Positions 12,001-15,000 of a DNA stretch of 61,292 nucleotides are shown piece by piece; the first letter of the stretch is position 1, and every line of letters starts with the position of its first letter. Position numbers: made by a program. Source of the stretch: Escherichia phage PA28. Where the stretch lies: the sequence record KP682381; one strand, written 5' to 3'.

Positions 12001-15000
12001 ATACTGCTTTGTCTGCTCTGACGCAACCAGAGATCTTTAGCGCAATCTTCCGTGTCAGTCTTTCACTACTGCGCCGCTCTGCAATAAGTTCTTCCCTGCG
12101 AGCTTTATAGCGGCTTTTTGCCGTACCTTTGGATTCTTTCCAGATTACGGTTACCATGATGGTCTCCTTTAAGTGGCTTTGGTGTATGACGCGTCGAGGT
12201 GTTTTTCTTCTCGATCGCGGCCTTGCAACTGAAATTCTCGTCATCCCCAAAACCACTTAGATTTTGGTCTCAACGGTTAGGTTGAGAGTCCATCAATGTT
12301 AAAGAGCCGGCCAATCTGTTCCGTTTGGCTTCCAGCGTCCTGCTGTTGAATTGAAGATAACCTAAGTTATCTGGTTGTGCAATAACTATATTTATCATTT
12401 TATGAAAAACGTTATAAATGACTGATAACAAAAATATTTTATTTTTTGTGGTATCCGCGTGATATTTTCAAGGGGGAAAGGCTGATTGTTATGGGTGATT
12501 GCATGTTAATCGAAGGGGAATTTGGTGTGTTGCACCAGCGGGTAGTCGAAATTCTAGGGGGGGCGTTGCTTGAGGTTATTGCTACTGGGGAAGCTATTTC
12601 AGCAGATGCTATTGCGGGAATGATCCGAGTGCTTCACCATGATGAATTGGATGATCTCGCTGTGAAGTTAGCTATAGATGTGTTACTTCAGGATATGCGA
12701 CTGTGTAATTAAGTAAATAAAACCCGGCACTGGAGCCGGGGGATTTAGAAATGGCATTTTATGAATTGGCTACTTGGCGAATGGTTTACCATCGGTGGTA
12801 TTGAGCACAATAAAAGGCCGTTCTTCGTGAGTGTTCTTATAGCAAAAGTTCAGTTGGAGTCTGATTACCAGCTATGTGATGACCAGAACACTCGCCCTAT
12901 GATTCTTACGTTTTTGTAGAATTCTTCTCTGTTCATTACTTCATCAGGATACTCTTCGCGGTTTATCGATCTGATAATTACCGATGTTGGCGTGGCTATG
13001 AGCGTTTTTACCCTTAACAAATCAGCTTGGCAAATTGCATATGTTTTACCATCCCTGATGCTCGTATCTTGCGTGTTTACCCCCACCACATCACCATCAT
13101 GGAGTGTTGGCTCCATGCTTTGCCCAACAACCCTGACCAACTTTGCCGCTTTTTCTGGAACTCCCATTTTTTTCAGGTAATAGCGCCTAAAAACTAGAGA
13201 GAATTCTGCGGACTCCTCCAATGCACAACTTCCTCCGCCAGCTGAAAGTGAAATATTTAGAAGGGGGAGCGCAACAAATTCGTCATTATCATTTTGATGA
13301 TCATCCCAGGCGATAGCTTTTAAAGATGATTCCCGAGCATTAGATGGCTCTTCTGCGCTCTGTGGTCTCATTGACCCTATACCAGAGCTTAGCCATTCAG
13401 GGCGAACTCTTAACGCGTTGGCTAATTCGACCATTTTACGTGATCCGGTTGTTTTACCAGATGACATCTTTTGTATGGCTGGTTGTGATACCCCCACCAT
13501 GTCTGCAAGTTGTGCTTGTGACAACCCGGCTGAACTCATGGCGGCATTTAGTCTTTCTGCGAATGTTTTCATACCTGTAATCTATAACCACGGTTATCAA
13601 AAGTAAAACAACAATTGTTATTGCTCTGGTGTATAACTCATGTTATTTTTGGTTATGCTTTATTTGCTGTAGAGGTATGCTCATGAATTTAGTGATTCAG
13701 CGAGCCTTGAATATTGTTGGCAGTCAAAAACGACTTGCAGCTGATTGCGGCGTATCACAGCCCGCTGTTCATAAATGGTTGCGAGGCGGAAAAGTTTCTC
13801 CTGAAAAAGTTTTCGCTATCGTTAATGCCACCAATGGTCAGGTTAAGGCTTACGAAATTCGCCCGGACTTACCGCACCTGTTTCCTCATCCGAACCAGGC
13901 TGAATAAGTAACACCGCTCTTTAACATTGCTGGTCGTTCACCTCTAACAGGGTGAGCAAACATCAGTGGCAAACCCATTGGGGATTGCCGCTTAACCCCA
14001 TATCAATATAGGAAAATTAACAAATGTCACAAACAAGTTACAGCAAACTATCACAGCGAGAAATTGATCGCGCTGAAACTGATTTACTCATCAACCTGTC
14101 AACGCTTACCCAGCGCGGTCTGGCAAAGATGATTGGCTGTCATGAATCGAAGATAAGCAGAACGGACTGGAGATTTATTGCTTCGGTCTTGTGTGCTTTC
14201 GGAATGGCATCAGACATCAGTCCGATTAGCAGGGCTTTTAAGTATGCGCTTGATGAAATCACAAAGAAAAAATCCCCGGTGGCCGCCGGGGACTCTAAGC
14301 AAATTGATATGCAATTCTGAGGGAATTACTGGATCAATCCACAGGAGTCATTATGACAAATACAGCAAAAATACTCAACTTCGGCAGAGGTAACTTTGCC
14401 GAACAGGAGCGTAATGTGGCAGATCTCGATGATGGTTACGCCAGACTATCAAATATGCTGATTGAGGCTTATTCAGGCGCAGATCTGACCAAGCGACAGT
14501 TTAAAGTGCTGCTTGCCATTCTGCGTAAAACCTATGGGTGGAATAAACCAATGGACAGAATCACCGATTCTCAACTTAGCGAGATTACAAAGTTACCTGT
14601 CAAACGGTGCAATGAAGCCAAGTTAGAACTCGTCAGAATGAATATTATCAAGCAGCAAGGCGGCATGTTTGGACCAAATAAAAACATCTCAGAATGGTGC
14701 ATCCCTCAAAACGAGGGAGGTTCCCCTAAAATGAGGGACATCCCTCAAAACGAGGGAAAATCCCCTAAAACGAGGGATAAAACATCCCTCAAATTAGGGG
14801 ATTGCTATCCCTCAAAACAGGGGGACACAAAAGACACTATTACAAAAGAAAAAAGAAAAGATTATTCGTCCGAGAATTCTGGCGAATCCTCTGACCAGCC
14901 AGAAAACGATCTTTCTGTGGTTAAACCGGATGCTGCAATTCAGAGCGGCAGCAAGTGGGGAACAGCAGAAGACCTGACCGCCGCAGAGTGGATGTTTGAC

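Follow-up and report, generated by a model that had tools for sequence, protein, structure and literature searches.

The window analysed here, a 61,292-nucleotide (nt) stretch of Escherichia phage PA28 (sequence record KP682381), is 100% identical to Escherichia phage 06-3462 (OP797663.1), a Stx1a-converting Traversvirus of E. coli O157:H7. From left to right, its immunity region holds N, the nutL leader, PL/oL, a small open reading frame (ORF), a hairpin, a gap, cI, oR and cro, followed by cII, O and P (Table 1). The small ORF lies on the plus strand, opposite to N and cI, and it is this ORF and the signals around it that we describe. A sequence-only reading of the window had singled out the interval 12440-12865, where it saw an acidic ORF of 73-88 amino acids (aa) running from the oL operators to a hairpin that also terminates the cI transcript, in the position where lambda carries rexAB and under the control of the repressor. 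The ORF and the hairpin account for part of that interval, and the remainder, 12741-12864, is just the 3' untranslated region (UTR) of cI.

Judged by sequence comparison, the small ORF is a genuine protein-coding gene under purifying selection. Its product matches the family phrog_3946 (PHROGs v4) with an E value of 1.9e-29 and 102 bits, residues 6-70 aligning with positions 2-67 of the 67-position profile. Two divergent homologues, P0009 and P0010, also match this family. Using tblastn, we found the protein encoded in 53 phage records, down to 35% identity; the carriers include Stx1a phages, many P22-like Salmonella phages (epsilon34, ST104, g341c, SPN9CC, MG40) and Klebsiella lambdoid phages. 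An exhaustive hidden Markov model (HMM) search of 1.84 billion representatives returned 26 clusters at 50% identity, and a profile search of a 5.8-billion-protein set returned 596 clusters at 90% identity from Enterobacterales, mostly Klebsiella, Salmonella and Enterobacter. A scan of viral contigs recovered near-identical copies only, and a peptide-pattern scan of genome contigs gave no confirmed relatives.

The check proposed in the sequence-only reading, conservation of the ORF versus synonymous drift, came out in favour of a gene. Across 11 loci with 35-97% aa identity, all with the frame open, the ratio of nonsynonymous to synonymous change (dN/dS, Nei-Gojobori) is 0.06-0.5, and synonymous sites are nearly saturated; for the pair of loci L020 and L028, for example, dS is 0.84 and dN 0.05. 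Across genera, copies with 35% to 100% identity keep the frame intact. The locus is rare in E. coli: of 5426 complete genomes, 50 carry it, each at 99% identity or more, and the ORF is intact in 49 of these. Frame-disrupting indels in close relatives, which the same reading had said would count against the gene, are thus limited among these carriers to a single G8 frameshift; the other indels, at 12472 and 12737, fall outside the 69-73-aa coding sequence (CDS). Given the family match, the synteny described below and the dN/dS values, the ORF is far beyond chance. The proposal of a real gene to which no function could be given therefore holds. The gene is already catalogued, as a hypothetical protein in GenBank and as a member of phrog_3946, a family without described function, structure or literature. 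An intact family ORF also lies unannotated in the curated genomes of epsilon34 (L020, 2489-2692), ST104, g341c and SPN9CC.

The plus-strand frame closes at the TAA at 12710-12712 and offers three in-frame starts: TTG 12446 (88 aa), ATG 12491 and ATG 12503. The start is annotated at 12491 in GenBank and at 12503 by PGAP in RefSeq genomes, and homology within the family begins at the residue encoded by 12503. The frame, acidity and position given in the sequence-only reading are confirmed, but its 88-aa form is not: homologues align just from 12503, the TTG lies upstream of the promoter-like element described below, and a 1-nt deletion at 12472 in the close relative RM12275 breaks the TTG frame and leaves the shorter ORF unharmed. 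A purine-rich Shine-Dalgarno region precedes ATG 12491, and relatives carry a GAGG-type Shine-Dalgarno sequence at the equivalent place. Two further candidates were set aside: a plus-strand 52-aa ORF at 12761-12919, which is without a family match and unsupported, and a 53-aa ORF at 12270-12431, also unsupported.

The product is acidic, with an isoelectric point (pI) of 4.3-4.4 and a net charge of -8 to -9; the family spans pI 4.1-4.4. AlphaFold2 predicts a bundle of three to four helices, with a mean confidence (pLDDT) of 65 for the window protein and 76.5 for a consensus-like member. Conservation falls on the hydrophobic core, on helix-capping motifs (HP, EPSRE) and on a Gly of helix 1 that is invariant; none of the conserved residues looks catalytic. 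The acidic residues are scattered, and the surface is acidic. Within the ORF, a run of seven G (12557-12563) is peculiar to the window allele, most relatives having GGGGTGT, which encodes the family-typical Gly-Val-Ser. The E. coli genome 2014C-3338 has eight G in place of seven and a broken frame; the extra G may stem from an error in sequencing, from decay or from switching at a slippage-prone run.

The hairpin beyond the ORF has a stem of 6 bp of G+C and, on the minus strand, is followed by a T-run (TTTTATTTAC). In the terminator scan it was the sole minus-strand terminator-like site in the interval, and its folding z-scores are -3.4 on the minus strand and -2.1 on the plus strand. Because of the minus-strand T-run and the lack of any other such site in the interval, we assign the hairpin as the terminator of the cI transcript, in agreement with the sequence-only reading. 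The plus strand folds into it equally well, and for the ORF mRNA it could serve as a weak terminator or as a 3' stabiliser. The hairpin (AAAACCCGGC-loop-GCCGGG) is kept together with the ORF in relatives, regardless of the cargo that lies past it. In Klebsiella phage ST974-OXA48phi18.2 (L022), from about 2715 on, an IS1 element sits within the conserved hairpin, truncating the terminator and parting the gene from the cI operon.

Table 1. Features of the immunity region in the window
Feature	Position	Strand	Details
N	11819-12157	-	leftmost in the gene order
oL operators	12357-12415	.	OL1 12357-12370 (ATAACCTAAGTTAT); OL2 12382-12395 (1 mismatch)
OL3, possible weak operator	12402-12415		2 mismatches to the pattern
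PL	-35 at ~12381-12376; -10 at ~12358-12353	-	-35 TTGCAC; -10 TATCTT; read by eye, below the promoter-scan threshold
T-rich tract	12436-12447	+	ATTTTATTTTTT
Candidate extended -10	12460-12468	+	TGaTATTTT; TG 12460-61, -10 12463-68; alternative register GATATT 12461-12466
Shine-Dalgarno region	12470-12481	+	purine-rich AAGGGGGAAAGG; 9 nt before ATG 12491
Small acidic protein CDS	12491-12712	+	73 aa from ATG 12491; 69 aa from ATG 12503
Intrinsic terminator of the cI (PRM/PRE) transcript	12713-12740	-	stem 12723-12740; T-run 12722-12713
cI 3' UTR, empty rex slot	12741-12864	-	~120 nt; no minus-strand ORF of at least 30 aa
cI repressor gene	12865-13572	-	HTH_3 and Peptidase_S24 (Pfam E 1.5e-17 and 3.9e-9); annotation
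cro	13683-13907	+	followed by cII, O and P

The gene occupies the same slot in all 12 lambdoid loci compared (the window, L002, L003, L020-L023, L028-L030, L038 and L039): it lies between the N/PL/oL side and the hairpin of the cI operon, with N and cI on the other strand. The slot is the same in lambdoid prophages of E. coli, Salmonella, Klebsiella and Pluralibacter with unrelated repressors. This is not the place of rex, whose true position follows cI on the same strand as cI; in the window that slot is empty, possibly as a deletion scar, and the sequence-only reading was mistaken in putting the ORF there. In relatives the cargo between the hairpin and cI ranges from 0 to more than 1 kb. Klebsiella phage ST101-KPC2phi6.1 (L023) holds RexA and RexB at the rex position (PADLOC E 1.7e-109 and 1.3e-60), MG40 (L021) and S107 (L028) hold BstA (E 1.7e-124 and 9.4e-100), L039 a PDC-M24-like pair, L003 a P63C protein and L029 a ParA-like ATPase; the remaining loci have uncharacterised genes. 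Since RexAB and BstA are found alongside the small gene, one hairpin away, the gene occurs together with rex and is no substitute for it. A position and strand that stay fixed across freely recombining immunity types are unusual for cargo and suggest a function tied to the immunity region.

Presence of the gene is patchy. Phages 21, mEp235, HK629, DE3 and Kapi1 share the DNA at 12160-12345 (~90%) and are absent from the 53 protein-encoding records. The adjacent N-nutL DNA is shared yet the gene is missing, a presence/absence pattern of the moron type, and the cI-N interval has been described as a moron hotspot (PMC7067206, PMC8585504, PMC2629481). A few family members are found elsewhere, at the end of a Yersinia Mu-like prophage, on a Pantoea megaplasmid and on a Cedecea chromosome. 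The Yersinia member (L033/L034, 4371-6295) follows a tail-fibre assembly gene and a PLDc_2 protein at the prophage end and is convergent with a 347-aa gene of no assigned function; two DinI genes come after the family member. The locus is a further site for accessory genes.

Upstream of the start codon lies a candidate extended -10 element, from which transcription is predicted to start at about 12472-12476. In 10 of 15 loci a TGn followed by nAnnnT precedes the start codon by 36-47 nt, compared with 3.6 expected from shuffled sequences (maximum 10 loci in 2000 shuffles), and a control window inside the ORF gave none. In the eight lambdoid loci whose element aligns, it stands at -36 to -43. 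Other examples of the element are TGcGATACT, TGcCATACT, TGgTAAGCT and TGtTATGCT, and L038 and L039 have TGtTATAAC at the same distance. Most lambdoid relatives retain the T-rich tract listed in Table 1 in the form (A)ATTTATTTTT, 11-13 nt before the TGn; the tract may be an UP-like or poor -35 region, or part of the oL/PL side. The conserved position of the TGn element suggests that the gene has a promoter of its own.

Our preferred reading, to which we give a little better than even weight, is that the gene is an autonomous moron-like unit with its own cI-independent promoter, encoding a small cytoplasmic binding protein with an accessory prophage function. The unit would be compact, sitting at the left edge of the immunity region and consisting of TGn promoter, Shine-Dalgarno sequence, ORF and hairpin, pointing towards cI. 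A weak extended -10 sigma-70 promoter would drive the gene without dependence on cI, so that expression, as for a classical moron, would be expected in the lysogen and during lytic growth alike. The product would bind a host or phage protein stoichiometrically, with neither catalysis nor DNA binding. Its most likely arena would be phage-phage or phage-host conflict, or modulation of the host, because its position adjoins a hotspot of defence genes; the gene itself would be genetically independent of whichever defence gene fills that hotspot. Lysogen-expressed cargo, as the sequence-only reading had it, is a plausible description of such a gene and the one we prefer, although it conflicts with that reading's own idea of repression from oL.

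Several observations weigh against this picture of a self-contained, cI-independent unit. We recognised no -35 element, and a consensus scan called no plus-strand promoter. The loci are not independent of one another, and shared ancestry could partly explain the conservation of the upstream element. In L038 the T-rich tract stays at oL and the ORF lies ~300 bp away, making the assignment of the tract to the promoter uncertain. The weak operator at 12402-15 is ~60-65 bp upstream of the predicted transcript start, and some influence of bound repressor is possible. At the other end of the unit, the hairpin lies 10 nt past the ORF stop and is followed on the plus strand by GGAUUUAG, which is not a U-tract, leaving plus-strand termination uncertain. 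One of the 50 E. coli carriers is frameshifted by an additional G in the G7 run. Sequence and fold searches gave no match backing any specific binding function, a literature search by protein accessions and PHROG id found no paper, and the gene goes unmentioned in the papers on the BTP1 transcriptome, BstA and epsilon34 (PMC7067206, PMC8585504, PMC2629481).

The closest alternative is the one put forward in the sequence-only reading, a promoter diverging from oL under the control of the prophage repressor, either as a repressed early gene or with PRM-like activation from OL2/OL3. We consider it unlikely. The gene abuts the outermost oL operator in most lambdoid loci, and OL3 lies ~60-65 bp upstream of the predicted start, with similar geometry in L002 and L028, within the range for contact with the C-terminal domain of the RNA polymerase alpha subunit (alpha-CTD) or the UP-like tract. 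Against this, the operators end at 12415, and the -10 at 12463-68 is ~45 bp past the last and weakest of them (two mismatches), so the -10/-35 region is free of operators and overlaps none. In L038 and L039 the promoter-proximal 230 bp are essentially identical, yet the repressors and the oR operators differ; in L038, moreover, a gene for a 37-aa peptide on the minus strand puts the ORF ~300 bp from oL. Identities of the ORF and of cI are uncoupled: L002 and L028 have cI 96% and ORF 50% identical, L020 and L021 cI 32% and ORF 97%, and L038 and L039 cI 80% and ORF 100%. Family members outside lambdoid immunity regions (Yersinia, Pantoea, Cedecea) also speak against such control. The lack of operator overlap, the comparison of L038 with L039 and the uncoupled identities together argue against both direct repressor control and a cognate interaction with the repressor, and this part of the sequence-only reading is not borne out.

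With the operator pattern ATAACnnnnGTTAT and at most one mismatch we found five matches in the 61-kb window versus 1.1 expected, all of them at oL (12357-70, 12382-95) or oR (13584-97, 13608-21, 13633-46). The ~90% identity to the N-nutL leader of phages 21, mEp235, HK629 and DE3 ends at ~12345, and the immunity module has its left border there. A comparison of 14 sequences, covering relatives that share at least 98% identity across 12300-12900, showed 20 variable sites; 13 of them fall within the 73 bp (12356-12428) of the oL operators with their spacers, and the promoter and ORF (12429-12712) vary at just two adjacent codons. The oL operator region is a local hotspot of change, perhaps through immunity micro-evolution or patchy recombination. 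The 37-aa peptide gene of L038 (~2407-2520, minus strand; the same segment is present in L039) encodes a hydrophobic product (MSEKVDHAFRRKVWIRIAIGLTIFWGLAAYLIAHFAF), has its own hairpin and is flanked by the oL-side T-rich tract on one side and the phrog_3946 gene on the other; the peptide looks like a small membrane toxin or a type I-like module. In the record annotation, an HNH endonuclease gene (16355-16966) immediately follows ren in the replication/nin region.

A second alternative, which we hold to be distinctly improbable, makes the product a factor of the lytic cycle or the switch, a small acidic inhibitor such as a DNA-mimic protein acting against restriction or other defences or an antirepressor-like modulator of the choice between lysis and lysogeny, and takes the position of the gene to be regulatory and not that of cargo. 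The ORF shows no co-variation with repressor identity, which speaks against a cognate antirepressor, and a visual check of the upstream sequence for a LexA box of the kind that governs SOS-controlled antirepressors found none. The PADLOC defence HMMs assigned 0 families to the window protein and three relatives.

A bolder proposal, in our view a long shot, is that the gene is an overlooked but widely conserved component of lambdoid immunity regions, a constitutive small acidic protein at the edge of oL that modulates the switch or prophage-host conflict. Possible modes would be binding of RecA, a protease, RNA polymerase, Nus factors or an early protein of an incoming phage. The immunity region has been under study for decades, and the small gene went unnoticed. 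If the proposal were true, the lambda-type immunity module would have an undescribed player that could sway the induction of Stx phages and their toxin output. If the gene is, as we prefer, lysogen-expressed cargo, it adds one more prophage accessory protein in the Stx1a phages of O157:H7 and O145 and in many Salmonella and Klebsiella prophages.

Searches for function gave one lead. Pfam and NCBIfam scans of the ORF and its relatives returned nothing above noise, a PDB sequence search with the family profile gave chance hits only (E at least 0.024), and Foldseek found nothing specific (best E 2.7 in PDB and 0.7 in BFVD). A few family members are named 'Fumarase D' or 'DUF2767 domain-containing' in UniRef, raising the idea of a phage-borne homologue of DUF2767/YdhZ (FumD) with a metabolic function, which we regard as very improbable. 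It can point, besides these names, to the same length, a collinear alignment and a Cedecea member near fumD. E. coli FumD (YdhZ) resembles the phage family in its size (65-71 aa), helical nature and restriction to enterobacteria, and the two have in common the Gly in helix 1 and a QEP/REPS turn. The scores, however, stay below threshold. The window protein has no Pfam hit to DUF2767 (PF10965) at E<=10; 5 of 53 members touch the model, the best with E 0.032 and 13.9 bits versus a gathering threshold of 20.7, and its scores are no better or more frequent than those of unrelated models such as Fe-S_assembly. In a local comparison by HMMER and hhalign with 86 FumD sequences and the Cedecea paralogue, hhalign gave the family versus FumD a probability of 1-6% (E 0.006-0.046) over a collinear alignment, and the outcome was at the level of noise. 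The charge is opposite, FumD being basic (pI 9.4) and the phage family acidic (~4.3), and FumD is chromosomal, not prophage-borne. The link to FumD is accordingly left as unproven, and we have not transferred the enzyme name. The fumarase assignment of the 69-aa FumD itself reportedly comes from one high-throughput screen.

On the Cedecea davisae chromosome (L035-L037, 5001-6048), the divergent member P0036 stands in a non-phage context 630 bp from the fumD orthologue; on one strand follow P0036, an 89-aa protein that appears to be secreted, and the fumD (DUF2767) orthologue. This possible cluster of paralogues underlies the 'Fumarase D' names.

That the locus makes no functional protein at all, the ORF being a chance frame or incidental to antisense or convergent interference with the cI operon, is scarcely credible and largely refuted: the ORF is short, lacks annotation in several curated genomes (epsilon34, ST104, g341c, SPN9CC), is convergent with cI, ends at a hairpin without a plus-strand U-tract and has one frameshifted relative, but the amino-acid sequence is under strong purifying selection over saturated synonymous divergence, copies of 35-100% identity retain the frame, an Rfam search of 11000-14500 at E<=1 gave no match, a strong minus-strand terminator parts the ORF from cI in the window, and the length of the intervening cargo differs among loci, from 0 to more than 1 kb.

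Returning to the preferred reading of an autonomous moron-like unit, one close parallel is with morons in the sense of Hendrix and Juhala: the gene is part of a small unit with a promoter-like element and a hairpin, is patchily present and lies in the mosaic cI-N hotspot (PMC7067206, PMC8585504). It differs from typical morons in that its position is fixed across many immunity types. It also differs from rexAB, BstA and 434 hex, which share the strand of cI and its transcript from PRM, whereas the small gene is on the opposite strand, past the cI terminator. In size, acidity and all-helical prediction the product resembles small acidic inhibitors of phages (Ocr, T7 gp5.9, P1 Coi, binders of the AsiA type) and small connector proteins of enterobacteria (YmgB/AriR), a likeness that offers no more than an analogy for how it might work, through stoichiometric binding.

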